DNA of 19,594 nucleotides from a virus (IMGVR_UViG_3300017707_001811:165573-185166), one strand, 5' to 3'. Counted from the stretch's first letter, positions 1,510 to 19,021 are shown. The notes: generated by a model from the letters alone, not told the origin. Made by a program: numbers and translations.

Positions 1510-1524
1510 AAATAAATTAAGGTT

Positions 1525-2070: not shown

Positions 2071-2094
2071 AAAAAATAATTTTAAAAAAAATAT

Positions 2095-2117: not shown

Positions 2118-2128
2118 ATTTATAAAAA

Positions 2129-2157
2129 TTGACTAATAAAACTAACCTAATTATAAT
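2129..2157 (+). promoter_or_regulatory. Sigma70-type promoter (TTGACT-N17-TATAAT)
   Basis: TTGACT at 2129-2134, 17-nt spacer, TATAAT at 2152-2157. ATG 2164 lies 6 nt after the -10 box. Heads the 2164-6266 gene run. Confidence 0.7.
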
Positions 2158-2163
2158 TGTGAC

Positions 2164-2337: not shown

Positions 2338-2339
2338 TA

Positions 2340-4088: not shown

Positions 4089-4453
4089 CTGAGATTTATC
4101 CATATTACGAAATTAAAAACTTTGTAAATCAATTTTGTTTGTCCAAAGAAGAATTAATGGAATCACAAGGATGGACTATTGAGTCCAGACCATGTGAAAA
4201 AACAGATAAAAAGTATGATACTTCAGTAAGAGAAATTGACGATAGATATTTTTATCTTACAACAAATGGTAAAAAAATAATTAATAAGGATTATCTTTTT
4301 GTTACTAAACTTAATAATTCTAAAACTATGAGAGTTATTAATAAAACTTTAAACAAGTATGGTTTTATAGTTAATAAAGATGGATTAATTTTAAACGTTA
4401 AAGAAAATGCTACACAGTTACTTGTTGATGAATCTTTTTTTGGTAATGATTAG
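4085..4453 (+). CDS. Hypothetical protein (122 aa)
   Basis: ATGA overlap with the upstream stop. No recognisable motif. Confidence 0.7.
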   Translation: MTEIYPYYEIKNFVNQFCLSKEELMESQGWTIESRPCEKTDKKYDTSVREIDDRYFYLTTNGKKIINKDYLFVTKLNNSKTMRVINKTLNKYGFIVNKDGLILNVKENATQLLVDESFFGND

Positions 4454-4574
4454 AATGTATTTATATTCATTTAAAGTACCAAAACCTTTATTTAAAGAAG
4501 AGTTAAATGAATATTTGAGACATATATTAAACGCAACAATTATTTGGTTAATTTTAATATTTTTATTTTTTTGA
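4446..4574 (+). CDS. Possible small membrane protein (42 aa), not in the ORF track
   Basis: MIRMYLYSFKVPKPLFKEELNEYLRHILNATIIWLILIFLFF*. Fills the gap exactly (stop 1 nt before ATG 4576) and has a hydrophobic C-terminus. Confidence 0.45.
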   Translation: MIRMYLYSFKVPKPLFKEELNEYLRHILNATIIWLILIFLFF

Positions 4575-4575
4575 T

Positions 4576-5259
4576 ATGAATGTTATAGTTTTAGGTGGAA
4601 CAGGGCTCTTAGGCTCCGAGTTCAAAAAAAATAGTGATTTTATACTTTGTGGTAGTGAAGTTGACATTAGAAGTGAAAATGAACTTTTTTTAAAGTTAGA
4701 TTCATTAAGACCAAAAATAATTCTATTAGCGGCTGCGAAAACTAATTCAGTTGAGATTGATAATAATCCTATTGATGCTATTGAAACTAATATAAAAGGT
4801 ACTGCTAATGTTGTTAAATACTGTATTAAAAATAATATTAGACTTGTATATATTTCTACTGACTATGTCTATAACCCAAAGGGAACGGAACATAGAGAAA
4901 ACGATTCTTTAAATCCTTTTAATTATTATGCTTGGACAAAATTAGGTGGAGAATGTTCAGTTAGAGGACATAAAAATTCCCTAATAATAAGGACTTCTTT
5001 TGGTTCCCAAGAGTATCCATATGAATTTGCATATACAAATAGATTGGTCAATAAAGACTATGTTGATGTGATAGCACCAATGATAAGAGATTTGACTTTA
5101 TCTAATGAAACAGGTATAATAAACGTTGGAACCGATGTAAAAACACTGTTTCAGTATGCTACTCAGAGGAATCCAAATGTTAAACCATTAAGACAATTAA
5201 TTCCCAATGATTTTACAATGGACTTAAATAAACTAAGAAGATTAAAATATATTAAATGA
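4576..5259 (+). CDS. rmlD: dTDP-4-dehydrorhamnose reductase-like (RmlD-family extended SDR), shortened
   Basis: Rossmann GGTGLLG, ETNIKGTANV, ISTDYVY and catalytic YxxxK (YAWTK). 227 aa is shorter than typical RmlD, so the substrate is uncertain. Confidence 0.8.
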   Translation: MNVIVLGGTGLLGSEFKKNSDFILCGSEVDIRSENELFLKLDSLRPKIILLAAAKTNSVEIDNNPIDAIETNIKGTANVVKYCIKNNIRLVYISTDYVYNPKGTEHRENDSLNPFNYYAWTKLGGECSVRGHKNSLIIRTSFGSQEYPYEFAYTNRLVNKDYVDVIAPMIRDLTLSNETGIINVGTDVKTLFQYATQRNPNVKPLRQLIPNDFTMDLNKLRRLKYIK

Positions 5260-6266
5260 TTAAATATGCAGATGTAATTGTAGACCTACAAGCTGGGGAT
5301 ACTGGAAAAGGGAAAGTATGTAATACCTTATCAAAGATTGATAATGAATATACTCATGTTATCCGATATAATGGAGGAGGTAATGCGGGTCACACAATTT
5401 ATAAAGACGGTAAAAAAATGGTAACGCATTTTATACCATCAGGAATTGTTAATGGTATAAAATCAATAATAGGTCCTGGATGTGTATTAAATGTAGAATC
5501 TTTAATGAAAGAAATTGAAACACTTGAAAAAGAAGGTGTTGAAATTAAAGGAAAACTTTTTATAGATAAAAGAGTTAATTTAATAACTGATGAACATCTT
5601 ATAGAAGAATTTAATGAAAGTAAAATAGGGACAACGAAAACAGGTAATGGTCCCGCATATAGGGACAAATATTTTAGAAAGGGAAAACGAGTTGAAGATA
5701 ATAGCGAGTTATTAAAAGATTATATAATTGACATCTATCAGGAATTACACGGTAACTCAGATAGTAAAATATTATTTGAAGGGGCACAAGGATTTGAACT
5801 TGATATTGATTGGGGTGATTACCCTTATGTGACATCATCACATTGTACTGTTGGAAGTGCTATTTTAAACGGAGTTCCACCACAAAAAATAAGAAAAGTT
5901 TATGGAGTTGCAAAGGCTTATAATACTTATGTTGGCTCTAAAAAATTTGAAGATAATAGTGATATATTTGATAAAATTAGAGAATTAGGTAATGAGTACG
6001 GCTCAACTACTGGTAGAGCTAGACAAATTAAATGGACAAATATTGATGACCTAGTAAAGGCATCAAATATAAATGGAGTAACTCATTTAATTATTAATAA
6101 AATAGACATACTTGAAAGTATTGGGCAATTTACAATAGTGGTTAATGGATTCCCAAGAACGTTTAATAACAAAGATTTCTTTCAAAATTTTATTGAGGAC
6201 ACAATGAAAAGATATTGTCCATTAATACAAGAAGTTATTTTTAGTTCTTATGCGGACGTAATATAA
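5256..6266 (+). CDS. purA: Adenylosuccinate synthetase, compact form (336 aa)
   Basis: DLQAGD15TGKGK, GGGNAGH46T, IGTTKTGNGPAYRDK, FEGAQG, GDYPYVTSS, EYGSTTGRAR (Asp-binding loop) and NKID (GTP-binding K-x-D). Confidence 0.9.
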   Translation: MIKYADVIVDLQAGDTGKGKVCNTLSKIDNEYTHVIRYNGGGNAGHTIYKDGKKMVTHFIPSGIVNGIKSIIGPGCVLNVESLMKEIETLEKEGVEIKGKLFIDKRVNLITDEHLIEEFNESKIGTTKTGNGPAYRDKYFRKGKRVEDNSELLKDYIIDIYQELHGNSDSKILFEGAQGFELDIDWGDYPYVTSSHCTVGSAILNGVPPQKIRKVYGVAKAYNTYVGSKKFEDNSDIFDKIRELGNEYGSTTGRARQIKWTNIDDLVKASNINGVTHLIINKIDILESIGQFTIVVNGFPRTFNNKDFFQNFIEDTMKRYCPLIQEVIFSSYADVI

Positions 6267-6843
6267 TCCTAATATATTTAGATTTTTTTTCAATAAAGGA
6301 CACTAAAAATTGAATTTCAGGTATATCAGTTGGGTCTATTAAAGTATAGTTAGACATAATATTGTCCCAAGATTCATTGTCAACATAAAAATTTAAATCA
6401 AAATTTGTATATAAAACGTTGGCAGTTTTAGGTATTGATAAATTTAAATTAGAAACATTATATTTAACACCATCAATTGTTAGAGTATGTATTGATGAAA
6501 GTTTTTTATCAATCTTTTCTAAAATATTATTTGAAGCGTAAAAATAAAATAAACCCATACTATTTTCATTATCTTCTAAATCTATTAAACTGACATAAAT
6601 TTTTTCAGGTACTGTGGAAATCCTAAAAAAAGTCCCAACTCTTTCACTAATATATGAAATTAGTTCATCACCGCTGATAAAGTAAGATGATGGCATTTTT
6701 ACTATTTTATAGTATAAAGTTATTGAATTGAAAAAGGTTGATATAAACAAATCTGAAAATTCAAATTTATATCCATTAACTTCAATTTCGTTTAAAGATG
6801 ATACCGATAATAGTTTTATTATGTTTTGTTTTGTTAATTTCAT
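6241..6843 (-). CDS. Hypothetical protein (200 aa), probable paralog of 17530..18237
   Basis: Long ORF convergent with purA (26-nt overlap). Shares EIEVNGYK/DIDVNGLK and FYFYASNNIL/FYIPNVLE segments with 17530..18237 by eye. Confidence 0.7.
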   Translation of the reverse strand: MKLTKQNIIKLLSVSSLNEIEVNGYKFEFSDLFISTFFNSITLYYKIVKMPSSYFISGDELISYISERVGTFFRISTVPEKIYVSLIDLEDNENSMGLFYFYASNNILEKIDKKLSSIHTLTIDGVKYNVSNLNLSIPKTANVLYTNFDLNFYVDNESWDNIMSNYTLIDPTDIPEIQFLVSFIEKKSKYIRIILRPHKN

Positions 6844-6923
6844 TGAATTATAATTGAATAAAATATGAGTTACAAAATTATCTTATTTAAAGTATTTTTA
6901 TTCATTTTCTATAAATACCGCTT

Positions 6924-6937
6924 TATTTATATTTATT
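6924..6937 (+). promoter_or_regulatory. Tandem overlapping TATTTAT motifs
   Basis: TATTTATATTTATT ends 3 nt before ATG 6941. A minus-strand copy (TATAAATA on +, 6910-6917) faces the divergent gene. Confidence 0.5.
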
Positions 6938-6940
6938 GAT

Positions 6941-7831
6941 ATGAGATTACTACAGGAAGAAATTAATAGAGTTAAAGAAATTATAAAAGTGATTTCTATT
7001 AATGAAAATAGTGAGAAATATTTACCATGTCAAAGATTCGGAGAACCAAAAAAAACTGTATGTAAGGCATTTAATAACTTAGGACCTTGGATTGTTGATT
7101 ATAATGGATTAGGTATGAGGAAATTAATTGATGAAAAAATTAAAAACATCCAAACAAACATACCTGAGAAAATTATTGAAAATTTTAGAGAAGGAATTGA
7201 GTTAATTAGAAAAACTGGTAAATACTCAGATTCATATATTGAGGAAAAACTCAACGACATCTCCAATAAAACACAAGTATATATAAACGGAGAGTGGAAT
7301 TATATTAATAAATTAAATACTAATTATAGAGATTTATCAGAGTTACTAACTGATGTTATTGAAAAAATTGATAAGATAGATAATGTTAGTCAGTGGTTAA
7401 ACTCAAAAAAAAGAACTGATGAAGAGGTAAAAAATTTTCTAACTAAAAGTGTTAAACCAAAATTAAAATATTGGATTAATGAGTTTTTTAAAACTTCCGA
7501 AGAGTTATTTGATTATACATATAATATAAAATATAATTCTAGCTTAGGTGAGGAAAGTGAGAATAGAATAGTTGATTTCCTTAAAGGAAATGGATTTGAA
7601 ATTTTATACCAAGGGGGTAACGGAGATTTTATCGATATGTTATTTGGGGTTGACTTGATTGTTAAAAGAGATGATTATGGTATTATCTTAATACAAGTCA
7701 AAAATAATGGACCAAAATGGGAACAACTAGGAAGATATAATGTAGATTGGGTTGCGATAGGTGACAGTAAAAAAATATACGATAAGAAAACTAAACAATT
7801 AATTGATATTACTCAATTTTATACAAAATAA
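6941..7831 (+). CDS. Leader-bearing protein with C-terminal PD-(D/E)xK nuclease-like domain
   Basis: N-terminal MRLLQEEINRVKEII..SINE leader. C-terminal GEESE helix, then IDMLFGVDLIV...LIQVK, matching restriction-endonuclease-fold motifs II and III (QxK variant). Confidence 0.6.
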   Translation: MRLLQEEINRVKEIIKVISINENSEKYLPCQRFGEPKKTVCKAFNNLGPWIVDYNGLGMRKLIDEKIKNIQTNIPEKIIENFREGIELIRKTGKYSDSYIEEKLNDISNKTQVYINGEWNYINKLNTNYRDLSELLTDVIEKIDKIDNVSQWLNSKKRTDEEVKNFLTKSVKPKLKYWINEFFKTSEELFDYTYNIKYNSSLGEESENRIVDFLKGNGFEILYQGGNGDFIDMLFGVDLIVKRDDYGIILIQVKNNGPKWEQLGRYNVDWVAIGDSKKIYDKKTKQLIDITQFYTK

Positions 7832-7833
7832 AT

Positions 7834-8013
7834 ATGAAAAAAATATTACTAATATTATCTTTTAGTGTTATGATTATGTCTTGTGACCAATCAACACATA
7901 ACTATAACTGTAAATGTGATAAAAACTGTTGTGATATTGAAAAAGACAGCATCAATACCGACCTAATGTTAGAAAGTGAATTTGAAGATGATACAATAGG
8001 GGTTAACAACTAA
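7834..8013 (+). CDS. Small Cys-rich lipoprotein (59 aa), not in the ORF track
   Basis: MKKILLILSFSVMIMS-C17-DQSTHNYNCKCDKNCCDIEKDS...: classic lipoprotein signal peptide ending in SC, then four more Cys and an acidic tail. Confidence 0.7.
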   Translation: MKKILLILSFSVMIMSCDQSTHNYNCKCDKNCCDIEKDSINTDLMLESEFEDDTIGVNN

Positions 8014-8089
8014 CAAACAACATTAAAGATATTGTGATTAATGCTAAAATTTGAAATATATTTTCAATTAACCTTTCTTTATTTTTCAT
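8003..8089 (-). CDS. Possible 28-aa hydrophobic peptide
   Basis: MKNKERLIENIFQILALITISLMLFVSC* with A-rich sequence before the ATG. Very short and could be chance. Confidence 0.25.
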   Translation of the reverse strand: MKNKERLIENIFQILALITISLMLFVSC

Positions 8090-8187
8090 TTTATATTGTT
8101 ATTAGTATGTGTAATCTAACTTTATTATAATGAAAAATATTTTTGAAATCAATACCAAGGGATGATAAAAAATCTTTTAATTTGTTA

Positions 8188-8195
8188 TATTTATT
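8188..8195 (+). promoter_or_regulatory. TATTTATT motif
   Basis: TATTTAT ends 4 nt before ATG 8199. Confidence 0.5.
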
Positions 8196-8198
8196 ATT

Positions 8199-9284
8199 AT
8201 GTCAAAAAAATTTATATTAACTGAGTCTGAAAAAAATGAAATTAAAAAACTTTATGGTTTATTAACCGAAGTTGCAAAATCGATAGTGGCCTCAACAAGT
8301 CCCGAAAGAATGCCAAATTTTATTGGTAAAGGTAATAAAAATTCAACATTTGGATTGAAAGGAGACGCTAAACAAGAAAATTTTTATTTTAAAAGTACTA
8401 TAGGAGACTTGGTTTCAAAAAGTACAGGTGATACCAAATTGTTTTTATCAGGATTTCAGCCAGCATCAGATGCTGGACAGTATGTTGACTATGTGAAGGT
8501 CGGAACATCAGAACTAACTAATAAAGGTAGTATTAGTTTTGATTTAGGTAAATTACCAGTGGAAACTGAAGTTATTGCAACACATAATGGTTTATTAGTG
8601 TTAAGAAGAATGATGGACCAACTAAACGGGTCGAAAAATGGAAAAGTAACCTTATCAATGTCCGCAGAACAAAGAGCTTCAGGACAAAAAACGTTTGACT
8701 TGAATAATATTTCTTCAAGAATTCCCCCAAATTTAGCAACAATCGCAAGTGCGTTGTCTGTATTATTAATACCTGAAGCACAAAGAGCGAATATTAAAGA
8801 TGGTTATGCTATAGACAATTTTGTTGGTAAAACGAATGAACAAATTATACAAGCAATTAATACAACATTAAAAAGAGGTTTAGTTGGTGTGTTTCTAACA
8901 CCTGAGGATAGTGCAAATATTGATAAAATAATAAGTGATAAGAAATTAGTTACAACATTAGATTTATCAGTTTTTGAATCGATGTATGGTAAAGGGACTT
9001 TAGATAAAACAGGAGGTTCCATCACTGAAGCACAAATTAATTCCGTTTGGAACTCATTTAAAAAATCATATAAAGATACTTTAATAAGTAATTTTACAGC
9101 TTATCTCGACAACGAATTTAAATACTTGGCAAACAATCTTAGTAAAATTATGGAAGGATTGAGCATTTCAACTCTATGGTATATGTATACAAAACTAAGA
9201 GACACTAGTACTTTAGGACCTAAATCAGGAGTCCAAACAAGTACCAAAACTCAAACTAGCCAGACGTATCAGATGGGTAAGTAA
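8199..9284 (+). CDS. Hypothetical protein (361 aa) with MSKKFILTESE...LLTE leader
   Basis: Long ORF with two L-T-E motifs in the first 24 residues. The remainder has no recognisable catalytic motif. Confidence 0.8.
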   Translation: MSKKFILTESEKNEIKKLYGLLTEVAKSIVASTSPERMPNFIGKGNKNSTFGLKGDAKQENFYFKSTIGDLVSKSTGDTKLFLSGFQPASDAGQYVDYVKVGTSELTNKGSISFDLGKLPVETEVIATHNGLLVLRRMMDQLNGSKNGKVTLSMSAEQRASGQKTFDLNNISSRIPPNLATIASALSVLLIPEAQRANIKDGYAIDNFVGKTNEQIIQAINTTLKRGLVGVFLTPEDSANIDKIISDKKLVTTLDLSVFESMYGKGTLDKTGGSITEAQINSVWNSFKKSYKDTLISNFTAYLDNEFKYLANNLSKIMEGLSISTLWYMYTKLRDTSTLGPKSGVQTSTKTQTSQTYQMGK

Positions 9285-9692
9285 TTATTCGTAAATTTCA
9301 ACAATTTTGTAGTCAACCCAAATATGTTCTTCAAAACTAACATATTTGACACCATCAACAATAATTAAGTCATCCATATAAGTGATAGATGTATCACCAA
9401 CAGACGGAATGAGTTCCTTGTAGATAATTAAAGAAGGCTCAACAACATAAGATGTGTCGATGTATACATCAATCACTCGCTCAGAAGTTTCAACTGAGGA
9501 AGTGTCAACCTGAAAATTAACACCCTCAAACAGATGAACTTCTTCTTCGGTCATCTGACCAAAGGTATCGTTGAATACCTTTTCATAAATCTTTCTTTCT
9601 TGTCGTTTTGTAATACGAGTTCCATCTGTAAGCTCAACAGTTTTACAAGAGTAAACCAAAAAAGACAATAAGATTAAAGAAATGTATTTCAT
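9285..9692 (-). CDS. Putative lipoprotein (135 aa)
   Basis: MKYISLILLSFLVYS-C16 lipobox-type signal and an acidic mature region. Its stop abuts the stop of the convergent gene (TAATTA). Confidence 0.7.
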   Translation of the reverse strand: MKYISLILLSFLVYSCKTVELTDGTRITKRQERKIYEKVFNDTFGQMTEEEVHLFEGVNFQVDTSSVETSERVIDVYIDTSYVVEPSLIIYKELIPSVGDTSITYMDDLIIVDGVKYVSFEEHIWVDYKIVEIYE

Positions 9693-9709
9693 GTTTTTAA
9701 TATTTACAA

Positions 9710-9740
9710 CAAATTTACGGAAACTTATTCATTCCCACAA
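9710..9740 (-). promoter_or_regulatory. Bacteroidota-type housekeeping promoter (TTG-N20-TAnnTTTG)
   Basis: Minus strand reads TTG (9740-9738), 20 nt, TAAATTTG (9717-9710), 17 nt upstream of the lipoprotein ATG. Matches the -33/-7 consensus of the Bacteroidota primary sigma factor. Confidence 0.55.
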
Positions 9741-9765
9741 GCATTTTCAAAAATTTTTTTCATAC

Positions 9766-9773
9766 TATTTATA
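9766..9773 (+). promoter_or_regulatory. TATTTATA motif upstream of the candidate small RNA
   Basis: Intergenic copy 21 nt before the first hairpin, with no ATG following. Confidence 0.4.
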
Positions 9774-9794
9774 GATAACAAAAATATTAAAAAT

Positions 9795-9865
9795 ACGGGC
9801 TTAGGACCGTTGTGGTTATGCCACATTTAACCTCGGTGAATTCGCTACTCACTGAGGTTTTTATT
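9795..9865 (+). ncRNA. Candidate structured small RNA (three consecutive hairpins, the last terminator-like)
   Basis: GC-rich island in AT-rich intergenic DNA. ACGG(G)C-TTAG-G(A)CCGT at 9795-9810; TGTGG-TTATG-CCACA at 9811-9825; 11-bp stem AACCTCGGTGA/TCACTGAGGTT at 9829-9859 (one G-U pair) followed by a T-tract. Confidence 0.5.
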
Positions 9866-9877
9866 TATAAAAAAGAC

Positions 9878-9885
9878 TATTTATT
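9878..9885 (+). promoter_or_regulatory. TATTTATT motif (second copy TATTTATA at 9862-9869)
   Basis: TATTTAT ends 6 nt before ATG 9891. Confidence 0.5.
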
Positions 9886-9890
9886 ATGAA

Positions 9891-10343
9891 ATGATGTTAA
9901 AAGAAAAAATAATAAAGATACTGAAAGAAAATTTTAGATTAAAGGATAGTTTAATTAAAGAAATGGAAAAATACGGACTATTCAATACTTTAAAATTTAC
10001 AACTATGACTTATACTAAACTATGGAGTATTGTTGGTGATGAGTATTTAAATAGGAATATAAAACAAGAATTCATACAAACTTTTTTTAAAGAATTAGGT
10101 TATGGATTCAGTTTGGGTGAAATTGACAAGGAACCAATTTTTTATGGTGAAAATGAATCAACATATAAAGAAATAGTTTATTTAGGCCCATCTAAAGTTG
10201 CAGTAATTGTTTGGGATAAAGATATATGGCAAGCAGATAACGAGTTTGGTGTAATTTATCATAATTTAAGTGATAATATTATTGATGAAATTTTTGACAT
10301 CGTTACCGAACTTTATGATAATAATAGGTATATAAAAAAATAA
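9891..10343 (+). CDS. Hypothetical protein (150 aa) with LKEKIIKILKEN leader, paralog of 17060..17518
   Basis: Leader motif, plus KYGLF/KHGLF, PIFY/PLYF, EIVYLG/EIQTFG and LSDNIIDEIF/LPDYTLDKLF shared with 17060..17518. Confidence 0.8.
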   Translation: MMLKEKIIKILKENFRLKDSLIKEMEKYGLFNTLKFTTMTYTKLWSIVGDEYLNRNIKQEFIQTFFKELGYGFSLGEIDKEPIFYGENESTYKEIVYLGPSKVAVIVWDKDIWQADNEFGVIYHNLSDNIIDEIFDIVTELYDNNRYIKK

Positions 10344-10360
10344 TTTAAAAAAAAAATATC

Positions 10361-10876
10361 ATGGAAAAATTAGCGGATAAAATATTTGGAATGATTGATA
10401 AGAATAATGATATTTTACACATAGCCAAATTTTTTGGGGGTATTAATGAATTATTAAACATAACAAAAAAATATCCATATCTAAATGCAATAATACAAAC
10501 CAAACTTGGAGGATATCTTTATTGTTCCGCCGCGGATGAGGTAGAGAATATGGTTCCTTTTGAATTACCATTTATAATGACTGAACTTGAAGATGCTGAT
10601 ATAGATGATGTTGAACATTATAATGCGAATGTTAATTTAATTATACCTGAATTGGATAAAGTTAAAGATATGCAGGTTCTATACTCTTGGCTTGAGGACT
10701 ATCTTATGGATATGGGAGCAGAAGTTGGAAGTTTTAATGATGGTAACTTAAATAAAAAAATGATTTGGATTTATGTGACAGAAATAAATGGAGTTAAGCT
10801 CGATTCAATCGCACAAATGTCCGTTAGTGACCAAGAAGTATTATCAATAATACCCGATAATTATATAAAGGATTAA
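10361..10876 (+). CDS. Hypothetical protein (171 aa)
   Basis: ORF in a co-oriented run, acidic, no recognisable motif. Confidence 0.8.
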   Translation: MEKLADKIFGMIDKNNDILHIAKFFGGINELLNITKKYPYLNAIIQTKLGGYLYCSAADEVENMVPFELPFIMTELEDADIDDVEHYNANVNLIIPELDKVKDMQVLYSWLEDYLMDMGAEVGSFNDGNLNKKMIWIYVTEINGVKLDSIAQMSVSDQEVLSIIPDNYIKD

Positions 10877-10877
10877 A

Positions 10878-11138
10878 ATGGGATTAAAAAAAATTATAAC
10901 TAGAATAATTAGAGAAAATATTAATATCTGTAATATTTTAAATGTTAATACTTCTGAAGAACTATTAGATTTATTAAATTCTATTGATATACACAAAGAT
11001 GACGTTGAGAAGGTAGATAAGATTGTTGAAAAAATGAAAAAAGATATGAAAAATTTAAGTTCTAAATACGATATTTTAGACACATATCTTCATGACATAC
11101 AAGACATTATATGTAAAAGAAAATATCCCGATTTTTAA
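10878..11138 (+). CDS. Hypothetical protein (86 aa) with LKKIITRIIREN leader
   Basis: Starts 1 nt after the upstream stop. Leader-type N-terminus and a helical composition. Confidence 0.75.
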   Translation: MGLKKIITRIIRENINICNILNVNTSEELLDLLNSIDIHKDDVEKVDKIVEKMKKDMKNLSSKYDILDTYLHDIQDIICKRKYPDF

Positions 11139-11142
11139 ATAC

Positions 11143-11475
11143 ATGATACTTAACGACAAAATAGTAAATAAAATTGTAAACTCAGATTATATTAAAGAAA
11201 TATATCCGATGCTTGACCATATTGAAACAAAAATGGATTGGGATGGAGACGAAGAATTCCCATTCTATGATTTGGAATTAAATATGTATTTAAATGACCC
11301 TAAAATCAATGAAAATAATATGTATATGAAAGGGTTTGACCCACATTATTTAGTTGATAAACATTTGATGTTTATATTTAAAATGGCAGGTCTTGATAGA
11401 CCATCGGCATACATACATCAAATTTATATTAAAGTAATAGCAAAAAATGGTGATTTGATATATCCTAGACGTTAA
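11143..11475 (+). CDS. Hypothetical protein (110 aa; start revised from 11092)
   Basis: ATG 11143 (MILNDKIVNK) lies 4 nt after the upstream stop and removes a 47-nt overlap. Confidence 0.7.
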   Translation: MILNDKIVNKIVNSDYIKEIYPMLDHIETKMDWDGDEEFPFYDLELNMYLNDPKINENNMYMKGFDPHYLVDKHLMFIFKMAGLDRPSAYIHQIYIKVIAKNGDLIYPRR

Positions 11476-11573
11476 TATAAAATATGGGGTTTTATTTTAG
11501 GATAAATTGATATCTCACTAAATTAATCTGTAATAATATTAAGTTGTGTTTTTTGAGCATACTGCTCATGTTT

Positions 11574-11891
11574 TTAAAAATAATATACGACTATATCTGA
11601 TTGAACGTCAACTGCTCTATAATGAGTACCAGTTTTATCCTCAACCCACTTAGCGATTGACGAAATGGAATCTATATTTTTCAAAGAAAAGAAAGAAGCA
11701 ATTTCTTCCATTAATTTCCTATCAATTGTACACCAATGACTCTTATTATTAAATTTAATCTGAGCATATTCATCTTTATTTGAATTAAGGAAATAACCGT
11801 TTATTCCATACTCCATATAAACAAAATCCTGATTGTCAAGATACTTAAATATTACATTTTCAATTCGAGATTCGGAGATTAGATATTTCAT
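11574..11891 (-). CDS. Hypothetical protein (105 aa) with MKYLISES leader, paralog of 18254..18574
   Basis: Shares MKYLIxES, FKYLDxQxF, EEIxxFFS and WVExK with 18254..18574. TATTTAT lies 7 nt upstream (11899-11905). Confidence 0.8.
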   Translation of the reverse strand: MKYLISESRIENVIFKYLDNQDFVYMEYGINGYFLNSNKDEYAQIKFNNKSHWCTIDRKLMEEIASFFSLKNIDSISSIAKWVEDKTGTHYRAVDVQSDIVVYYF

Positions 11892-11895
11892 TGTA

Positions 11896-12222
11896 TTAAT
11901 AAATACTTAATACGAAAAATTCAACATCCCACTCTGAACCATATTCTTCCATATTCAAACCAAACATGGAATCAATTGTTCTCCAAATTTCTCTTTTTAA
12001 ATCATGACCAATTAAGACTCCCTTATTTGGTTTAAAGTTGCCCTTTAATATTCCTTCGGGGTCAATTAGTATTTGAATGTTGGTTCTTTCAATACGTCTA
12101 TCCTCTGATGCCAACCATACCCCAACCTTTTTGAATTTAACATCAACAACATCATTAAAAGTACTTTTAAGAAATCTTTCAATCGACGAATTGATTTTAC
12201 TTTCAGTAATAAGATATTTCAT
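11896..12222 (-). CDS. Hypothetical protein (108 aa; start revised from 12363) with MKYLITES leader
   Basis: Internal ATG 12222 gives the family leader MKYLITESK, with TATTTAT 5 nt upstream. The listed upstream extension overlaps the divergent gene. Confidence 0.78.
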   Translation of the reverse strand: MKYLITESKINSSIERFLKSTFNDVVDVKFKKVGVWLASEDRRIERTNIQILIDPEGILKGNFKPNKGVLIGHDLKREIWRTIDSMFGLNMEEYGSEWDVEFFVLSIY

Positions 12223-12227
12223 ATAGG

Positions 12228-12240
12228 ATAAATATTTATA
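12228..12240. promoter_or_regulatory. Palindromic divergent TATTTAT pair (ATAAATATTTAT)
   Basis: Perfect 12-bp palindrome at 12228-12239 gives TATTTAT on both strands, between divergent units starting at 12222 (-) and 12291 (+). Confidence 0.5.
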
Positions 12241-12290
12241 GTTATTAAACTTGTGTGTAAAATTAAGAACATAAAAATAAATATTTGATA

Positions 12291-13028
12291 ATGAAAGATA
12301 ATATAACATCAAATTATATTGAGTTAAATATATTAAACAAGATTTTGAATAAAAAATTATCAAATAAATTTGACTGGTTTAAAGGTATTGAATTAACACA
12401 AGTTGGGGTTAATAACAATCAAAATTATCTGTATATGAATGGTGATATCTATCTTGATGAAGATTGGGTAGGTAATCAGTGGAGAAAATATTATGATTAT
12501 AAAGAATTACCTTTTTTTGGTGATAATAGTGATTATACATTTGGTGATTTGATAGGTTCAAGGGATGAATGGATTGATAAATTAAAAGAAATATTTATTT
12601 CAACATTTAATACCATACATGGAGGTAAACCTCCTAAATATTTATCATTTAGTTGGATTAATGTTCATCCTGTTGAAATAGACAAGGATGATTATAATTT
12701 TTTGGAAGAAAACTTTACTAAAATTTTAAAAGAAAATACAAATATTAACTCAAGAGTCAGAAGAAGAATTAATTTACTTGATGATGAGTTATTATATAGA
12801 ATGAGTGCGATTTATAGACCTGATAATATATGTAGATATGTAAGTGGTGAAGAATTATTAGAAGTAATTATAGAGGCGGTAATTGATGCTATGTATTGGA
12901 CTTATTTTAGTGATATGGATGATAATTCAGGAGAGTGGAATGAATCTTATTATTTTATGTATGATTATATGAAAGACAAATATGGTGAAAAAATAAAAGA
13001 ATATTACCACATTAATTGCGGAAATTAA
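12291..13028 (+). CDS. Hypothetical protein (245 aa; ATG start preferred over TTG 12285) with internal leader-like segment
   Basis: Contains LEENFTKILKENT at 12702-12740, resembling the family leader, which suggests two fused modules. Confidence 0.78.
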   Translation: MKDNITSNYIELNILNKILNKKLSNKFDWFKGIELTQVGVNNNQNYLYMNGDIYLDEDWVGNQWRKYYDYKELPFFGDNSDYTFGDLIGSRDEWIDKLKEIFISTFNTIHGGKPPKYLSFSWINVHPVEIDKDDYNFLEENFTKILKENTNINSRVRRRINLLDDELLYRMSAIYRPDNICRYVSGEELLEVIIEAVIDAMYWTYFSDMDDNSGEWNESYYFMYDYMKDKYGEKIKEYYHINCGN

Positions 13029-13029
13029 A

Positions 13030-14235
13030 ATGACAGAAAAATTTAAAAATAAAATAAAAAATATCGTAAATGAGTTAGGGTACTACGAAGCCAAAAAAAT
13101 TATTGGTGTCTCTTTTACTGAATTGGCTGAATTAATTGATGAAAGAATACCTTACGATTTTGCACATGAAATATTAATAGAGAATATTAATAATAAAAAT
13201 ATACCTACAGAATATAAAGAATTTAAAATTCATACTAGTTTTGATGGGGTTCTTTATTGGAGTACAAAAATAAAAACAGGACATTTTTTATCTAATATTA
13301 TAGAACATATTCATTTAGTTGCAACTCCGTTTTGGGACGGAAACGAATATACTCCAGTCGAACTTGATTGGTATGCGCTGTATAATGACGATACAAATAA
13401 AAAAATTGTTGATTTTGGTAGTGACGGTAGTTTCTTTAGAAGAATTGAAGATAGAACGTCATTTAAAAATCTTGATGATTTATTCCAATGGTATAAAGAA
13501 TTCTATTTACCTACAATATATAATATAACAATGAATGACTTCTTACCAAATATCCAACAAGTTGCCGACGATGAGTTAGATGAAAGATTCGGCCCAACTA
13601 ATTTAGAGGAACAAATAAGAAGAATACTAAAAGAAGAAGTTAATAAAAAATTCTTGAAACCAAATGAAAAAACTGAAAAACTTATTTTAGATAGGTTAAA
13701 TAATATTTTTTCAGATATGAATATATATCACGTTGAAAGTTATAAAACAAGACACGATTTTGAGTTTTGTAAAAATGGTAAGGAAATAATGAATTTAGTA
13801 TTGTTTTTTGAAGAAACTAATGACCGAAGACCAACATCTGAAAGAACATTCATAGAGTCAACTTTATTTATACCCAAAGAGTTAGTTAACGATATGTTAA
13901 CCTTTATGCCTATTAGAAAAAATTATCTTCATTACGTAATTGAAGAATGGTTCGAGGATAATTTTTTAAGTAAAATCTCAAATATGATGGGTAGAAATGA
14001 TATATCTGTGGATGAATTATCATTTAGAGATAGTGTTGATGTATGTGTACCACCAATTACTGAAAAACCTGAAGATGTTACCCAAGAGGAGATGATTAAG
14101 GTTATTATGAATAATACACTATGGCGTAAAAAAGATTTAGTTGCGTTAGAAGAAAGAGAACCTGGGTCTATAGAACGGATGTATTTACAAAAACTTCGTA
14201 ATATTGAAATGGATAGATTAAGAAGTAATAGATAA
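13030..14235 (+). CDS. Hypothetical two-module protein (401 aa) with internal TNLEEQIRRILKEE leader
   Basis: Residue 190 onward (nt 13597) reproduces the MNLQExIRxxLKEE leader of the downstream genes, with T in place of M. Confidence 0.8.
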   Translation: MTEKFKNKIKNIVNELGYYEAKKIIGVSFTELAELIDERIPYDFAHEILIENINNKNIPTEYKEFKIHTSFDGVLYWSTKIKTGHFLSNIIEHIHLVATPFWDGNEYTPVELDWYALYNDDTNKKIVDFGSDGSFFRRIEDRTSFKNLDDLFQWYKEFYLPTIYNITMNDFLPNIQQVADDELDERFGPTNLEEQIRRILKEEVNKKFLKPNEKTEKLILDRLNNIFSDMNIYHVESYKTRHDFEFCKNGKEIMNLVLFFEETNDRRPTSERTFIESTLFIPKELVNDMLTFMPIRKNYLHYVIEEWFEDNFLSKISNMMGRNDISVDELSFRDSVDVCVPPITEKPEDVTQEEMIKVIMNNTLWRKKDLVALEEREPGSIERMYLQKLRNIEMDRLRSNR

Positions 14236-14236
14236 T

Positions 14237-14806
14237 ATGAACCTACAAGAACATATAAGAAAAGTATTAAGGGAAGAACTTAATGAAGTTAGAGTTCCAA
14301 GAAGTGAAAGAGTGGAAGTATATAAAGATGATAATATAATTGTTGTTGTTCCATTAACACATAGAGCATTACAAAAATATGCTCACCAATGCCAGTGGTG
14401 TATTAATGATGATATTCATGAGTGGGAAGATTACCATAAAGGTAAACATGCGGTAATAATTCAAAGAAACCCAAAGAAACTAAAAATAGGTATAACAGGA
14501 AATCCAACGGCATCGGAAATATTTTTATTAGCCAAATGGGATAACAATCAATCAAGTTTTGAGGATGTATGCCAGATGTTAGATTATGAATTTAGGAATG
14601 ATAGAACAATGTCTGATTATTATGTAACGATTTCAAACGATATAAATAACTTCGCCACCAACATAGTCTATTATTCACCTGAAACAGGTATCTACGACCA
14701 AGAAGATAATTTCTTATGGAATTTTAATATAGAGATAAATGACATCCCGAATGTAAAACCTAAAGTCATTGAGATAATGGATGATTATTTAACTGAAGAA
14801 GAATGA
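14237..14806 (+). CDS. Hypothetical protein (189 aa) with MNLQEHIRKVLREE leader
   Basis: Leader followed by a YKDDNIIVVVPLTH..LQKYA..CQWCI segment, a type I associate with uncharacterised large-phage proteins (from memory, unverified). Confidence 0.8.
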   Translation: MNLQEHIRKVLREELNEVRVPRSERVEVYKDDNIIVVVPLTHRALQKYAHQCQWCINDDIHEWEDYHKGKHAVIIQRNPKKLKIGITGNPTASEIFLLAKWDNNQSSFEDVCQMLDYEFRNDRTMSDYYVTISNDINNFATNIVYYSPETGIYDQEDNFLWNFNIEINDIPNVKPKVIEIMDDYLTEEE

Positions 14807-14845
14807 ACCTACAAGAACAAATATCAAGAATGCAATCAATGATGG
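14803..14845 (+). repeat. 43-bp exact direct repeat, copy 1 (gene 5' end)
   Basis: ATGAACCTACAAGAACAAATATCAAGAATGCAATCAATGATGG, identical at 15843-15885. Confidence 0.95.
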
Positions 14846-15246
14846 AGGACAATAATACTAGAAGAACTGGTGTTGGGAGAACTATGGATACATTCACATT
14901 TGATGATTTATATGATGAACTTTTAGGGTCAACTTATTTTAAATTTCAAAACTATGATATTTGGTTTGGTGTTAATGGTGAAGAAATAACAGACGAATTA
15001 ACCAATAAAATATTAGATTCACTTATACCTCAAGATAGTTACAGTTCATATGAGAAGTGGAAAAATTCAAAATGGTATAACATAACAGGATTCCCATTTT
15101 CAAGTAAAGATTGGTCAATGGTTAAGAATGGAGATGAACAATTCAAATGGCACTCCACAGGACATAAAAACATGGAAGAACGAATATTCAATTCGTATTT
15201 AGAAAAATATGGGCAATTCATAGTTGTTAATTTAACTGATAATTAA
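14803..15246 (+). CDS. Hypothetical protein (147 aa) with MNLQEQISRMQSMM leader
   Basis: ATGA overlap with the upstream stop. First 43 nt identical to those of 15843..16571. Confidence 0.8.
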   Translation: MNLQEQISRMQSMMEDNNTRRTGVGRTMDTFTFDDLYDELLGSTYFKFQNYDIWFGVNGEEITDELTNKILDSLIPQDSYSSYEKWKNSKWYNITGFPFSSKDWSMVKNGDEQFKWHSTGHKNMEERIFNSYLEKYGQFIVVNLTDN

Positions 15247-15247
15247 T

Positions 15248-15841
15248 ATGAACCTACAAGAAACAATAAGAAAAGTATTAAAGGAAGAAACCAAAAGAAT
15301 TGATGATTTTTTGGACACAATAACAGATGTACACGAAATGTCCGATGAATTAAAAGAATTTGTTAAAAAATTTATTGAAGAATCTGATTGTAAAAGGATA
15401 GATTTCTCAAATTTTAAAATGCCTGTAATGGGAGTGGCGTTAGAAAGTGGGGTTTTAATTAATTCTGAAGTTATTGATTATGATTTAGAATTTTTGTTAT
15501 TTTTAATATTTCATGAAATCGCTCACCAATATCAATTTAAAAAATACGGGGCTGATATTATGTATGATTGTTATATTGGTGACATAACAGAAATAAAAGC
15601 TGCTGAGTTTATGAAAAAAACGGAAGAAGTTGCTGATGAATTCGCGGCAAGGAAAATTAGAGAACTCCAAAAAATAGGTTTGATGGGAGAATATAATCCT
15701 CCACAAATGTACAAAAGTGTCCCAATACAAAAAATAACGAAGATGATTCGTAATTACAGAAATGATATGAAAATAAAAAATATCAATTCACCAATAAAGG
15801 TTAGTGAGTATTTTTATAATGCAGTTAAAAGTGAATTATAA
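15248..15841 (+). CDS. Leader-bearing HExxH zinc metallopeptidase-like protein (ImmA/IrrE-like)
   Basis: MNLQETIRKVLKEE leader, H89-E-I-A-H93, and downstream E126-x-x-A-D-E-F-A typical of ImmA/IrrE-type zincins. Confidence 0.7.
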   Translation: MNLQETIRKVLKEETKRIDDFLDTITDVHEMSDELKEFVKKFIEESDCKRIDFSNFKMPVMGVALESGVLINSEVIDYDLEFLLFLIFHEIAHQYQFKKYGADIMYDCYIGDITEIKAAEFMKKTEEVADEFAARKIRELQKIGLMGEYNPPQMYKSVPIQKITKMIRNYRNDMKIKNINSPIKVSEYFYNAVKSEL

Positions 15842-15842
15842 T

Positions 15843-15885
15843 ATGAACCTACAAGAACAAATATCAAGAATGCAATCAATGATGG
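15843..15885 (+). repeat. 43-bp exact direct repeat, copy 2 (gene 5' end)
   Basis: Identical to 14803-14845. The sequences diverge immediately afterwards. Confidence 0.95.
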
Positions 15886-16571
15886 GATTAAACGAGGTAT
15901 CAAACCCGTATTCAATCACTTGGTTAGAACCTACAAAGGAATATTTTACACAAGAGTTAGAAGAGTTACTTGGAAATCCAATGAGGTTCAGCAAAGATGA
16001 ATTCTTTCACCCACAAAATTATGATTTAATGTATTCCATATTTCCACACACATTCAAAATAATTGCGGAACATGCAAAAGGAAGTGAAGTGGATAATGAA
16101 CAAGAAATTAAAGACATTCTATTAGATAAAGAAATATCTGATTTAATGAATGATTGGGACGATTTTAAACTAGTTCTATTAAAAGATGAACAATCACAAA
16201 TGGAAGGGTTTAATTTGTTTAATAAAGGAAGAATGGAAGAATGGGGAGATGAGAAAATAAACAGTACATTTTATATGGGAAGATTCTCAAAAGTGTTTCC
16301 AAGAATGTTTAAAGATACAACATCATCAGGATTAATTAAACAAATGAAAAATGATGATGGAGAAGTTAACCCGTACCACAAAGGCTATTTTGATAATATA
16401 GAAAATTTAAGAAACAAAAAACATAGAGAACTTCCAGCACCATTTGTAATGAAACTACCAACAGGTGGAAGAGAAGGGAATGAATATACGTTAATTGGTG
16501 GACATAAACGTTCAACAATCGCTAACCAACTAAACGTACCAATATCAGTTTGGTTTATAGAATTATCGTAG
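15843..16571 (+). CDS. Leader-bearing protein with C-terminal ParB/sulfiredoxin-like domain (242 aa; start revised from 15804)
   Basis: ATG 15843, 1 nt after the upstream stop, gives the family leader. The C-terminus LPAPFV...YTLIGGHKR..IANQLNVPISV fits the ParB/Srx P-x-V...L-I-x-G-H-x-R pattern. Confidence 0.6.
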   Translation: MNLQEQISRMQSMMGLNEVSNPYSITWLEPTKEYFTQELEELLGNPMRFSKDEFFHPQNYDLMYSIFPHTFKIIAEHAKGSEVDNEQEIKDILLDKEISDLMNDWDDFKLVLLKDEQSQMEGFNLFNKGRMEEWGDEKINSTFYMGRFSKVFPRMFKDTTSSGLIKQMKNDDGEVNPYHKGYFDNIENLRNKKHRELPAPFVMKLPTGGREGNEYTLIGGHKRSTIANQLNVPISVWFIELS

Positions 16572-17063
16572 ATGAACCTACAAAAGACAATAAGAAGAGT
16601 ATTGAAAGAAACCCTTGAATCTAGATGGAATAAAGGTAATTACAACTACCAACACGGGTTCTGTCATTATTTCGCATATAACATAATTGATAAAATTAGA
16701 GAAAGATTCCCCAACAAGAAAGTTAATTACTATCTGTTGTTAGCGAACGAAGTTGATACCGAATTTAATAATGATGTTGTACAAGAATATCTAATCCATG
16801 CTTATATTCAAATAGATGATATGTTACTTGATTCAAATGGATTCACAACAGAAGATGCTGCTTGGGAAAGATTGGAAGAATGGGAAAGAGTTCAAAGACG
16901 AATGACACCTGATGAGTATGAGATTAATATATGGGATGAAGAAACAGATGAAATACCTGAATGGTTCTTCAATAATAGTTTTTGTAACACAGGAAGAGTT
17001 AAGAAAGATATGGAAGAATTCCTAAATAACCCAATAGTTCAAAGAATATTAAGAGACAAATGA
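16572..17063 (+). CDS. Leader-bearing protein with putative Cys-His-Asp triad (papain/transglutaminase-like)
   Basis: MNLQKTIRRVLKE leader, then GFC31HYFA, IH76AYI and LLD87SNG in the order and spacing of a papain/transglutaminase-like triad. Confidence 0.55.
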   Translation: MNLQKTIRRVLKETLESRWNKGNYNYQHGFCHYFAYNIIDKIRERFPNKKVNYYLLLANEVDTEFNNDVVQEYLIHAYIQIDDMLLDSNGFTTEDAAWERLEEWERVQRRMTPDEYEINIWDEETDEIPEWFFNNSFCNTGRVKKDMEEFLNNPIVQRILRDK

Positions 17064-17518
17064 ATCTACAAGAACATATAAAGAAAGCACTAAGAGAAAA
17101 TACTAGTGATAAATTTTTATCTACAATAAAGAAACATGGTTTATTTCATTTTCTTATGGTGAGTCAAATAAACCCCATGATTCTTGGAAAATATGTAAAA
17201 TATGAAGAACTACCAAAAGAAATTATATATAGATTCTTGGATGATTTAGGTAATTCAAATAAGATAAGTGAATGGATAACAGATTATTATGATAGTCCAT
17301 TATATTTTAAAAGAGGTCAAGATGGTAGGATATATGAAATACAAACCTTTGGATATAACGGTTCCGTAACAGGGGAGTTTTTTATAGATAAAACGTATAT
17401 TAATAATTTTACATTGGATTATGATTTATTACCTGATTATACTTTAGATAAATTATTTGAAATGGCTTTACTCGGACCATTTTATCAATCAATTTATAAG
17501 GATAATGTTAAAGATTAA
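17060..17518 (+). CDS. Hypothetical protein (152 aa) with MNLQEHIKKALREN leader, paralog of 9891..10343
   Basis: Leader and shared motifs with 9891..10343. ATGA overlap with the upstream stop. Confidence 0.8.
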   Translation: MNLQEHIKKALRENTSDKFLSTIKKHGLFHFLMVSQINPMILGKYVKYEELPKEIIYRFLDDLGNSNKISEWITDYYDSPLYFKRGQDGRIYEIQTFGYNGSVTGEFFIDKTYINNFTLDYDLLPDYTLDKLFEMALLGPFYQSIYKDNVKD

Positions 17519-17529
17519 TACGGGACTGA

Positions 17530-18237
17530 TTAATCAATTAATTTAGGGATAATATTAACACTTACAAATTGCCAATTACGGTCAATAAAAGAGGGATACT
17601 TAAATAAATAATCAGACAAACAACCCCAAATCGGGTCTTCGAAATATTCAGAATAATCATATTTAAGGTCATAAATATTATGAATTATTTCCTCAGCGTC
17701 CGTAATTAATTTTGATTCACTACTATTAATCCCTTTAAATCTAAATTCATCAATAACAAGACTTATATCTAAATGAAAGGATTCAGAATCATCCCAGTAC
17801 ATATCAAAATCATTATCGACTACATACATACCTTTTATTTGATAATATCCTTTTATATTACTTATTGATTCTTTTAAATCGGTTTTATTTATACATTTCA
17901 AAAATTCATTTTCTAAAACATTTGGAATGTAAAATTGGTGTCTTTCAAAGTCATCAAATTTAACTAAGGATTCAATTTCTCGCATTGTTAAATTAGTACT
18001 TAGTAGTTTATCTAAAACAACTAATTCATCCGCAACTAAAGTAACCAAAGAGTTATAAGAGAATGGTAGATTCTTAGGGTTAGATATTTTTAAAGTTGGT
18101 ACATAAAAATCGTAAGAACGTGTGGTTAGTCTATCAAACTCACCTGACATATATAATTTCAAACCGTTAACATCAATGTCTTTAATGTATTTAGGTAAAA
18201 ATTTAATAAATCTATTTATATTATCTATTTTGGACAT
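17530..18237 (-). CDS. Hypothetical protein (235 aa), probable paralog of 6241..6843
   Basis: Long ORF. TATTTATA (18246-18253, minus strand) lies just upstream. Shared segments with 6241..6843. Confidence 0.78.
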   Translation of the reverse strand: MSKIDNINRFIKFLPKYIKDIDVNGLKLYMSGEFDRLTTRSYDFYVPTLKISNPKNLPFSYNSLVTLVADELVVLDKLLSTNLTMREIESLVKFDDFERHQFYIPNVLENEFLKCINKTDLKESISNIKGYYQIKGMYVVDNDFDMYWDDSESFHLDISLVIDEFRFKGINSSESKLITDAEEIIHNIYDLKYDYSEYFEDPIWGCLSDYLFKYPSFIDRNWQFVSVNIIPKLID

Positions 18238-18253
18238 TTTTTATATATAAATA

Positions 18254-18574
18254 TTAACCCGCACCACAATCGGAGTAAGGTTCACCAACAGTAATATCAA
18301 ATTTATTTTCAACCCAACTGGCTACCAAATATAAACATTCATCCAAAGATATTGAAAAGAAATTTGAAATCTCTTCCAATAAAGAACAACTAATATAACA
18401 ATCATTAGATTTACGATGAGTGGAAATAATTGCGTAAGATAAACGTTCCCTCCAATGAATCTCAGATGGCCAAAAAAGAATATCACCTTCATCCTCAAGA
18501 TGAAAAAAGTTTTGCATATCAAGATACTTAAATACTAATCTATCAAACTGTGATTCGTCTATTAGGTATTTCAT
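18254..18574 (-). CDS. Hypothetical protein (106 aa) with MKYLIDES leader, paralog of 11574..11891
   Basis: Leader and shared motifs with 11574..11891. ATGA overlap with the upstream stop. Confidence 0.8.
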   Translation of the reverse strand: MKYLIDESQFDRLVFKYLDMQNFFHLEDEGDILFWPSEIHWRERLSYAIISTHRKSNDCYISCSLLEEISNFFSISLDECLYLVASWVENKFDITVGEPYSDCGAG

Positions 18575-18939
18575 GATATATGAGCACTCCTTACTTCTGT
18601 AACTTTATATTCAGGGAATAAACTAACAAACACGTCTGCTAATAGGTATCTGGCATTAACCGACCAAAAAGGGTGAGGAAGCATCTCATCATATCTATCC
18701 AAAGACCTATCATAATATAATTCACCACTATGTTTATTAAATACCATTAATTTAACACCATCAGAATCGTATAATGTAATGTGAGAATCTCTTTCACTAT
18801 ATTCACCAATTAAGTTCTCAAAATGAGGAATAAGTTTATGTTTTAGTTTCTCATATATTTCAACATATTTAACATCTCTCCAAGTCCTTTCAAGCTCGGA
18901 AATAAGTTTAAGTTGTGATTCGGTGATAAGGTATTTCAT
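18571..18939 (-). CDS. Hypothetical protein (122 aa; start revised from 18954) with MKYLITES leader
   Basis: ATG 18939 gives the family leader, with TATTTATA (18944-18951, minus strand) immediately upstream. Confidence 0.8.
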   Translation of the reverse strand: MKYLITESQLKLISELERTWRDVKYVEIYEKLKHKLIPHFENLIGEYSERDSHITLYDSDGVKLMVFNKHSGELYYDRSLDRYDEMLPHPFWSVNARYLLADVFVSLFPEYKVTEVRSAHIS

Positions 18940-19013
18940 ATGATATAAATACAAACATAAGTCAAAATGGTCCCCTTAACAATTCCATAATATGTTTAAC
19001 CATTTACCTTTAA

Positions 19014-19021
19014 TATTTATA
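19014..19021 (+). promoter_or_regulatory. TATTTATA motif
   Basis: TATTTAT ends 5 nt before ATG 19026. Confidence 0.5.

Follow-up and report, generated by a model that had tools for sequence, protein, structure and literature searches.

A cluster of leader-bearing genes

The window analyzed here, a 19,594-nucleotide (nt) stretch of viral DNA (IMGVR_UViG_3300017707_001811:165573-185166), is the final 19.6 kb of a single, linear IMG/VR contig of 185,166 bp. Between positions 6941 and 18939 of the window lies a cluster of genes whose products begin with short, recurrent N-terminal leaders, or tags, that run into largely dissimilar sequences, the payloads. A sequence-only reading had proposed that these leaders are capsid-targeting propeptides of the kind known from phage T4, closed by an (I/L)-x-E site after which a prohead protease would cut, and the 14 gene starts that it named are all real open reading frame (ORF) starts with the peptides it gave. 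As described below, the motif goes with the junction between leader and payload in families in which one payload takes many leaders, and near-complete relatives of this virus encode a T4-type prohead protease. Class 1 leaders (MNLQE...) head the genes starting at 14237, 14803, 15248, 15843, 16572 and 17060, with looser relatives at 6941, 9891 and 10878, all on the plus strand; class 2 leaders (MKYLIxES) head minus-strand genes starting at 11891, 12222, 18574 and 18939.

The first class 1 gene (14237..14806; 189 amino acids [aa]) encodes the leader MNLQEHIRKVLREELNE (14237-14287), followed by a payload that begins VRVPRSER. Its neighbor (14803..15246; 147 aa; leader MNLQEQISRMQSMME, 14803-14847) starts in an ATGA overlap with the upstream stop codon. 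The 197-aa product of 15248..15841 carries MNLQETIRKVLKE (15248-15286), and its orthologs bear MDLQENIRRILKE, MNLQETIRRILRE or MRHIIKKILKE; the ORF of 242 aa read from the ATG at 15843 (15843..16571) carries MNLQEQISRMQSMMGLNE (15843-15896). At 16572..17063 (163 aa), the leader MNLQKTIRRVLKE (16572-16610) precedes a payload starting TLESRWNKGNYNYQHGFC, which in the relative G1 sits within a 507-aa fusion, and the last class 1 gene (17060..17518; 152 aa) begins with MNLQEHIKKALRE (17060-17098).

The looser relatives are 6941..7831 (296 aa; leader MRLLQEEINRVKE, 6941-6979), with a further I-N-E at residues 20-22 and no Pfam or PHROG match; 9891..10343 (150 aa; leader MMLKEKIIKILKE, 9891-9929), a homolog of which in locus L034 bears a MNLQENIYRIQSMMGIITE leader instead; and 10878..11138 (86 aa; leader MGLKKIITRIIRE, 10878-10916), with homologs that bear MKRKILRKIIKE and MRLLIKKILKE. 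A leader resembling that of the 6941 gene, MRLLDSIKSLISE, heads some members of the 16572 family. The plus-strand ORF 8199..9284 (361 aa) has a 24-residue leader of another type, MSKKFILTESEKNEIKKLYGLLTE (8199-8270), with two L-T-E sites, found also on three other proteins of this genome and on G1 proteins.

Two further plus-strand ORFs carry a leader in their interior. The 245-aa product of 12291..13028 contains a leader remnant without Met, LEENFTKILKE (12702-12734), and its residues 138-245 match a stand-alone 110-aa protein of locus L033 that starts MNLQEHIRRVIKE. The 401-aa product of 13030..14235, a member of repeat family D1, contains a class 1 leader, again without Met, TNLEEQIRRILKEE (13597-13638), and each of its halves matches a separate leader-bearing gene in L025-L030. 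Because their halves correspond to separate leader-bearing genes in related contigs, both ORFs are true in-frame fusions.

Among the minus-strand genes, the 105-aa ORF 11574..11891 begins MKYLISE-S (11871-11891) and belongs to a large tandem paralog family, with more than 30 members in related contigs and a variable start (MKYLITE, MKFIITE, MKFEINE); the 106-aa ORF 18254..18574 (MKYLIDE-S, 18554-18574; repeat D2) is its paralog. The leader MKYLITE-S occurs at 12202-12222 in the 108-aa ORF read from the ATG at 12222 (11896..12222), for which no homolog was found among the fetched loci, and at 18919-18939 in the 122-aa ORF read from the ATG at 18939 (18571..18939), orthologs of which start MKYIITES and, in L030, are fused behind a class 2 family member. 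This class 2 family (100-120 aa, MK[YF]LITESxLxxVIFKYLD...) is present as five to nine tandem paralogs per locus in L012, L018, L019, L027, L029 and L030, and as two in the window.

The description of the tagged proteins as unrelated is correct for most payloads, which have no mutual similarity, but not for the 11574 and 18254 proteins, which are paralogs (40% identity), nor for those of 9891 and 17060, which are weakly related. That several of them are predicted enzymes was not borne out: none of the 14 proteins matches Pfam or PHROGs. For the 14237 protein, a search of a protein atlas gave sub-threshold leads only, and fold searches with its structural model gave no clear match (Foldseek against the PDB, best E 0.26; VIA-align wide, best Z 4.5). 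An Rfam scan of the window returned no match.

Position and excess of the (I/L)-x-E motif

All 14 N-termini hold an (I/L)-x-E with its Glu at residues 5-22, compared with a mean of 5.5 in composition-preserving shuffles of residues 2-25 of the same N-termini, and none of 5000 shuffles reaches 14; the motif is in excess near these N-termini (14 vs. 5.5), as the sequence-only reading expected. Its statement that the leaders end in (I/L)-x-E is strictly true for 12 of the 14, the other two ending in M-M-E (14803) and V-K-E (6941). Each of these two also holds a strict L-Q-E at residues 3-5, and the 6941 protein has in addition the I-N-E at residues 20-22; the count of 14/14 stands because both have a strict site within the first 22 residues.

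The positional signal extends beyond the window. Two relatives, G001 (296 kb, 100% complete) and G002 (318 kb, 96% complete), were picked among contigs holding homologs of the 14237 protein and fetched in full. The position of the motif is sharply peaked, with its Glu at residue 13 in 12 cases in this genome (2.4 expected) and at residue 11 in 28 cases in G002 (4.1 expected). A core pattern, h-x-[KR]-h-h-[KRS]-E (h, hydrophobic), was counted in residues 1-25: 9 proteins of this genome and 16 and 23 of the two relatives have it, where the internal rate of the pattern predicts 0.17, 0.61 and 0.86, respectively.

Leaders and payloads are exchanged at the motif

Two payload families, those of the 14237 and 16572 proteins, were traced through metagenomes. 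In the 14237 family, the residues directly before the payload read L/I/V-x-E in 117/117 cluster representatives. The payload (xRVPRSER...) is preceded by MNLQE..LKE, MNLQE..LREELNE, MNLQEQISRIQSMMGVISE, MKxLIKKILKE, MKKIIAYADFVAE, MKYIKCFENFQVINE or MKRISE, and other members have a leader plus a zinc-ribbon insert or one of several unrelated fused domains. About a dozen leader architectures occur, and payloads that are 87-93% identical can bear quite different leaders. In the 16572 family, L/I/V-x-E stands at the junction in 98 of 99 representatives, the sole exception having L-x-D, and fusions to unrelated upstream domains end in ISE, IIE, IEE, INE, LNE or ITE. Two leaderless forms of this family begin MADLESKWN, that is, with the payload core and without the motif. 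Together with the varied architectures, these leaderless forms indicate that the motif belongs to the junction and not to the fold. The representatives are mutually related, and the weight of the junction data therefore rests on the roughly dozen independent architectures and not on the raw counts. The proposed layout of a tag plus a variable payload is upheld by these data: orthologous payloads may change their leader, lack one or be joined to other domains.

An AlphaFold model of the 14237 protein (built from 51 sequences; mean predicted local distance difference test score [pLDDT] 88.5) is consistent with such a border. Residues 1-20 have pLDDT values of 55-62 and are modeled as a helix (residues 3-14) followed by a coil (residues 15-21) that contains the invariant Glu17; values in the payload blocks are 76-97 and in most places exceed 90. 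In this model, the leader is predicted to sit outside the folded payload.

Additional modules are found next to leaders. A zinc-ribbon module (C-x-C-G-W-S-W-K-L-S...D-P-x-x-C-H-K-C) directly follows the leader in otherwise different proteins, namely P0074 and P0102 of the 14237 family and the product of G002 75850-76332; in the 14237 family, this insert separates the leader from the payload, and a new L-N-E comes after it. G002 also encodes a family of 495-923-aa paralogs (45795, 55049, 99389, 123707 and 89474) that have no Pfam match and whose N-termini read (leader)-(I/L)-x-E-G-R-(L/I/V)-E-D-V-K-K-(K/R)-(Y/F)-P...D-P-S-G-N-N-K-Y.

The lineage and its head protease

The contig (31% G+C; 63% complete according to CheckV) is part of the genome of a jumbo myophage related to T4. 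Among its products are a 1059-aa tail sheath protein, with best matches in T4-like cyanophages and a Flavobacterium myophage, as well as a DNA polymerase, a helicase, a head-tail adaptor and its own Hsp70 (DnaK). The sheath, polymerase and adaptor genes mark the contig as viral and not cellular; an origin from a giant eukaryotic virus, considered at one stage, was dropped once the tail sheath, the head-tail adaptor and T4-type relatives had been found. The 14237 protein has hundreds of metagenomic homologs, some on contigs of about 300 kb, and no match in a tblastn search of cultured phages. Searching IMG/VR with a strict DNA pattern of the MNLQE leader gave 106 matching stretches on about 80 contigs. 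Over 73 genes, with a mean identity of 53%, the contig runs colinear with G001, its first 57 kb corresponding to G001 228-296 kb and its 57-185 kb to G001 1-100 kb. Absent are about 110 kb, the counterpart of G001 101-228 kb, a region that includes the G001 head module at 162-174 kb.

A Glu-specific protease of the gp21/Peptidase_S77 type, which the sequence-only reading anticipated, is not found on the 63%-complete contig itself, but one is present in 7/7 near-complete leader-carrying relatives. Direct searches of the contig for gp21, gp23 and the capsid protein of nucleocytoplasmic large DNA viruses gave no match, and neither did the search controls; because the controls also failed to match, the protease and capsid negatives for the contig rest on the synteny argument. 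From synteny, we infer that the protease gene of this genome lies in the missing part. Both G001 and G002 encode a Peptidase_S77 (T4 gp21) protease together with a Gp23-family capsid protein, and 5/5 tested genomes that contain the MNLQE DNA and are 97-100% complete encode one Peptidase_S77. The GELNHP and SSRG(L/V)GS motifs of the relatives' protease, with the catalytic His and Ser, align with T4 gp21 (all T4 proteins for alignment were taken from NC_000866).

The expectation that capsid and scaffold sites have the same (I/L)-x-E holds for the relatives' sequences in silico. In the relatives' capsid protein, LISE|T or LINE|A aligns with LLRE|S of T4 gp24, in the region of the gp23 site, and their scaffold proteins hold 14 sites each of the motif. 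In seven genomes, the start of the protease conserves GIL(V/I)E, a sequence that resembles LIE-9 of T4 gp21 (PMC9026906). Small leader-bearing genes lie inside the G001 and G002 head modules, between the portal, protease and scaffold genes. A complex prediction for the G002 protease and a leader-bearing N-terminus scored 0.00 and gives no evidence either way.

The gene that adjoins the G002 prohead protease gene, and diverges from it, also encodes a leader: its 769-aa product (135696-138005, minus strand; L051) begins MKDLIKKMLKE and has a PolyA_pol head domain of the CCA-adding type.

DNA-level conservation and expression timing

The class 1 leader is conserved as DNA as well as peptide. A repeat finder independently recovered its DNA as a 6-copy direct repeat, and the 14803 and 15843 genes are identical over 43 nt from the ATG. 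Codon choice in the MNLQE class is atypical: AAC makes up 85% (25-30% genome-wide), CTA 67% (9%), ATA 97% (36%) and AGG 71% (11%) of the respective choices. In the MKxLIKKILKE, MKKIIRLTESDL and MKYLIxES classes, by contrast, synonymous sites vary freely, including TCN/AGT serine codons, and the peptide is kept. The near-identical MNLQE DNA is taken as a second layer, for which cassette exchange or gene conversion at the tag is the simplest explanation. A comparable identity exists in T4, where the first 30 nt of ipII and ipIII are the same (NC_000866).

Upstream of genes, (A)TATTTAT(A) is enriched about 20-fold within 40 nt, genome-wide and also in G001 and G002 (in the window, at 1502-19021). 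The genes for portal, protease, scaffold, capsid, sheath, tube and adaptor have it upstream and those for polymerase, ribonucleotide reductase and DnaK do not, a distribution consistent with a putative late promoter. Leader genes have it more often than other genes, most clearly in G001 (29/40 vs. 75/341, p = 3e-10) and also in G002 (p = 0.018) and this genome (p = 0.03). In many leader genes, TATTTAT ends only 4-6 nt before the ATG, which suggests that their late mRNAs may be leaderless.

Probable capsid-targeting propeptides and the alternatives

In our estimate, with a probability of roughly 0.6, the leaders target their proteins to the capsid as the T4 propeptides do, with new sequences and on far more cargo. 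In favor of this are the excess and N-terminal position of the motif, its place at the junction under varied architectures, the modeled leader outside the payload fold, the protease and capsid sites of the relatives, the synteny with G001, the TATTTAT enrichment, the leader genes within head modules and the T4 precedent. According to this explanation, a short amphipathic N-terminal helix would bind each protein to the scaffold core while the prohead assembles, a gp21-type prohead protease would cut after the Glu of the (L/I)-x-E at the leader end, and the payload thus freed inside the head could leave it with the DNA at infection. Core binding, cleavage, packaging, ejection and a role in host takeover are what we infer for the tagged proteins from their genes.

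A number of observations weigh against this. The protease gene itself is absent from the contig's sequence, and no tag is significantly similar in sequence to the T4 capsid-targeting sequence (a test of homology would need longer peptides). Up to about 10% of the relatives' genes are tagged, far above the T4 cargo, and these include the 769-aa nucleotidyltransferase with the PolyA_pol domain and a protein with a peptidoglycan-binding domain. The motif itself is common, with a background of about 1.25% per position in AT-rich proteomes and 5.5/14 already in the shuffles, and it is not depleted inside tagged payloads (observed/expected 1.1-1.4, vs. about 1.2 in other proteins). In the 11574/18254 family, the conserved region runs straight on from the "leader," and the L/I/V-x-E at the junction could be part of each payload's own N-terminal motif. 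Finally, the atypical codons of the MNLQE class point to a constraint at the DNA or RNA level as well.

Some of these points would be met if the shared helix had another job and were neither cut nor packaged. It might dock the protein on some shared partner outside the prohead core, such as a chaperone, membrane or phage factory, or it might control stability. Such a helix, amphipathic and basic, is a generic binding surface; it heads many proteins, including large enzymes expected in the cytoplasm, the internal (I/L)-x-E sites are not depleted, and the genome has an Hsp70 of its own. We consider this unlikely, however, as it leaves unexplained why the junction has L/I/V-x-E whatever the leader type, and also in fusions to unrelated domains, and why the invariant Glu lies in an unstructured linker. 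The Hsp70 gene, moreover, has no counterpart in G001 and G002, which have even more leaders, and the link between leaders and the promoter motif of structural genes fits head assembly. The codon data, the 43 identical nt in the 14803 and 15843 genes, and the tandem genes with ATGA overlaps or with TATTTAT 4-6 nt before the ATG could instead be taken to mean that the element acts mainly as DNA or RNA, as the border of a recombination cassette or as a translation-initiation region of leaderless or coupled mRNAs, with the peptide as a by-product. This is less probable still: the other leader classes vary at synonymous sites and keep the peptide, the internal in-frame copies keep it without an ATG, the junction rule is a pattern at the protein level, and T4 ipII and ipIII share leader DNA even though that leader acts as a peptide. 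A modifying enzyme might recognize the tag, as with the leaders of ribosomally synthesized and post-translationally modified peptides; this would fit one shared leader on many payloads but has very little to recommend it, as no Radical_SAM (PF04055) match was found in this genome, G001 or G002 with a search whose control matched 14/14 genomes; the absence of Radical_SAM from these three genomes rules out the radical-SAM-linked form of this idea, other kinds of modifying enzyme not having been searched for.

Propeptides of the T4 kind can also be cast in a bolder form, which we hold to be doubtful. In freshwater T4-related jumbo phages, a multi-class N-terminal address code (MNLQE/IRKILKE, MMG-type, LTESDL-type and MKYLITES-type) might load dozens of proteins, up to about a tenth of the genes, into the capsid for co-injection, with reshuffling by tag recombination and by two-payload fusions cut by the protease, and with the classes setting partners, amounts or positions in the prohead core.

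Within a limited literature search, we know of no publication on such leaders outside the T-even phages. Should the tags function as they do in T4, they would label, at the sequence level, the proteins that enter the host along with the DNA of uncultured large phages, and candidate injected proteins could be picked from metagenomes without culturing. The T4 packaging trick would then scale from three to five proteins up to dozens, and the in-frame fusions with an internal tag would be simple natural polyproteins that are resolved inside the capsid.

Comparison with known systems

In T4, gp21 cuts after L/I-X-E, and a 10-residue capsid-targeting sequence suffices for packaging (PMC9026906, PMC3012670, PMC12373910); the internal proteins have nothing but this leader in common and, once injected, counter restriction as specific inhibitors of the host's restriction systems (PMC12373910). 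The leaders described here resemble the T4 sequence, which gp21 removes from IPI, IPII and IPIII and which has counterparts in the Alt and gp24 propeptides, in being short N-terminal tags that end in (L/I)-x-E on otherwise unrelated proteins. The lineage has a gp21-family protease, hydrophobic residues are spaced along the helix before the site, the tag DNA is identical between some cargo genes (30 nt in T4, 43 nt here), and the cargo genes lie in variable clusters. In sequence, the likeness is one of pattern only, a hydrophobic-x-E unit that occurs twice, as in the starts of gp22 (MLKEQLIAE) and gp24 (MAKINELLRE). The tags differ from the T4 sequence in having no detectable similarity to MKTYQEFIAE and in falling into several classes, 7 to 24 residues long and in many cases with a second (L/I)-x-E site. 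There are 14 to about 40 tagged genes per genome, vs. about five in T4, a cargo set larger by an order of magnitude; two-payload ORFs with an internal tag are frequent here, and the present system is known from genes alone.

Giant phages of the phiKZ type (phiKZ, 201phi2-1 and SPN3US) likewise have a large capsid with dozens of protein species, many of them head-internal proteins processed after Glu at a three-residue motif (PMC5694885, PMC9026906), and paralogs among these proteins share N-termini. Their motif is S/A-x-E, however, and most of their propeptides exceed 100 residues, whereas the tags here are short and end in L/I-x-E, and the present lineage has T4-type capsid, scaffold and tail genes. 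With polymorphic toxin and effector systems, to which the sequence-only reading had likened the locus, it shares a constant N-terminal address, exchangeable payloads, tandem cassettes and recombination at the module border. The parallel is apt as an analogy of architecture (tag and variable payload) but does not extend to homology; the proposed destination is the phage capsid, and no toxin domain was recognized.

Other genes of this genome and a distant relative

A more distant relative of the 14237 payload is encoded by G003 (locus L020; 344 kb, 91% complete), where it starts MRYLKKYGEILNE|GRVKR and where neighboring genes start MKYIKLFEEY, MRIRRFNE and similar; G003 gave no Peptidase_S77 match and a weak Gp23 match. 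Elsewhere in the present contig, a gene at contig positions 7511-8218 (minus strand; L001), between the helicase and head-tail adaptor genes, encodes a complete Fe/Mn superoxide dismutase (Sod_Fe_N and Sod_Fe_C, E 1e-40) with an N-terminal extension of about 35 residues, MKSLKLLSESLLNQINGEEESDLKFFLTE, that contains L-S-E and L-T-E sites; this enzyme, too, may be tagged. Within the window, the leader cluster is preceded at 2340-6266 by auxiliary metabolic genes recognized through Pfam (a glutamine synthetase-like protein, a 4HBT thioesterase, an RmlD-like reductase and an adenylosuccinate synthetase), and the window begins with a subtilase fragment.

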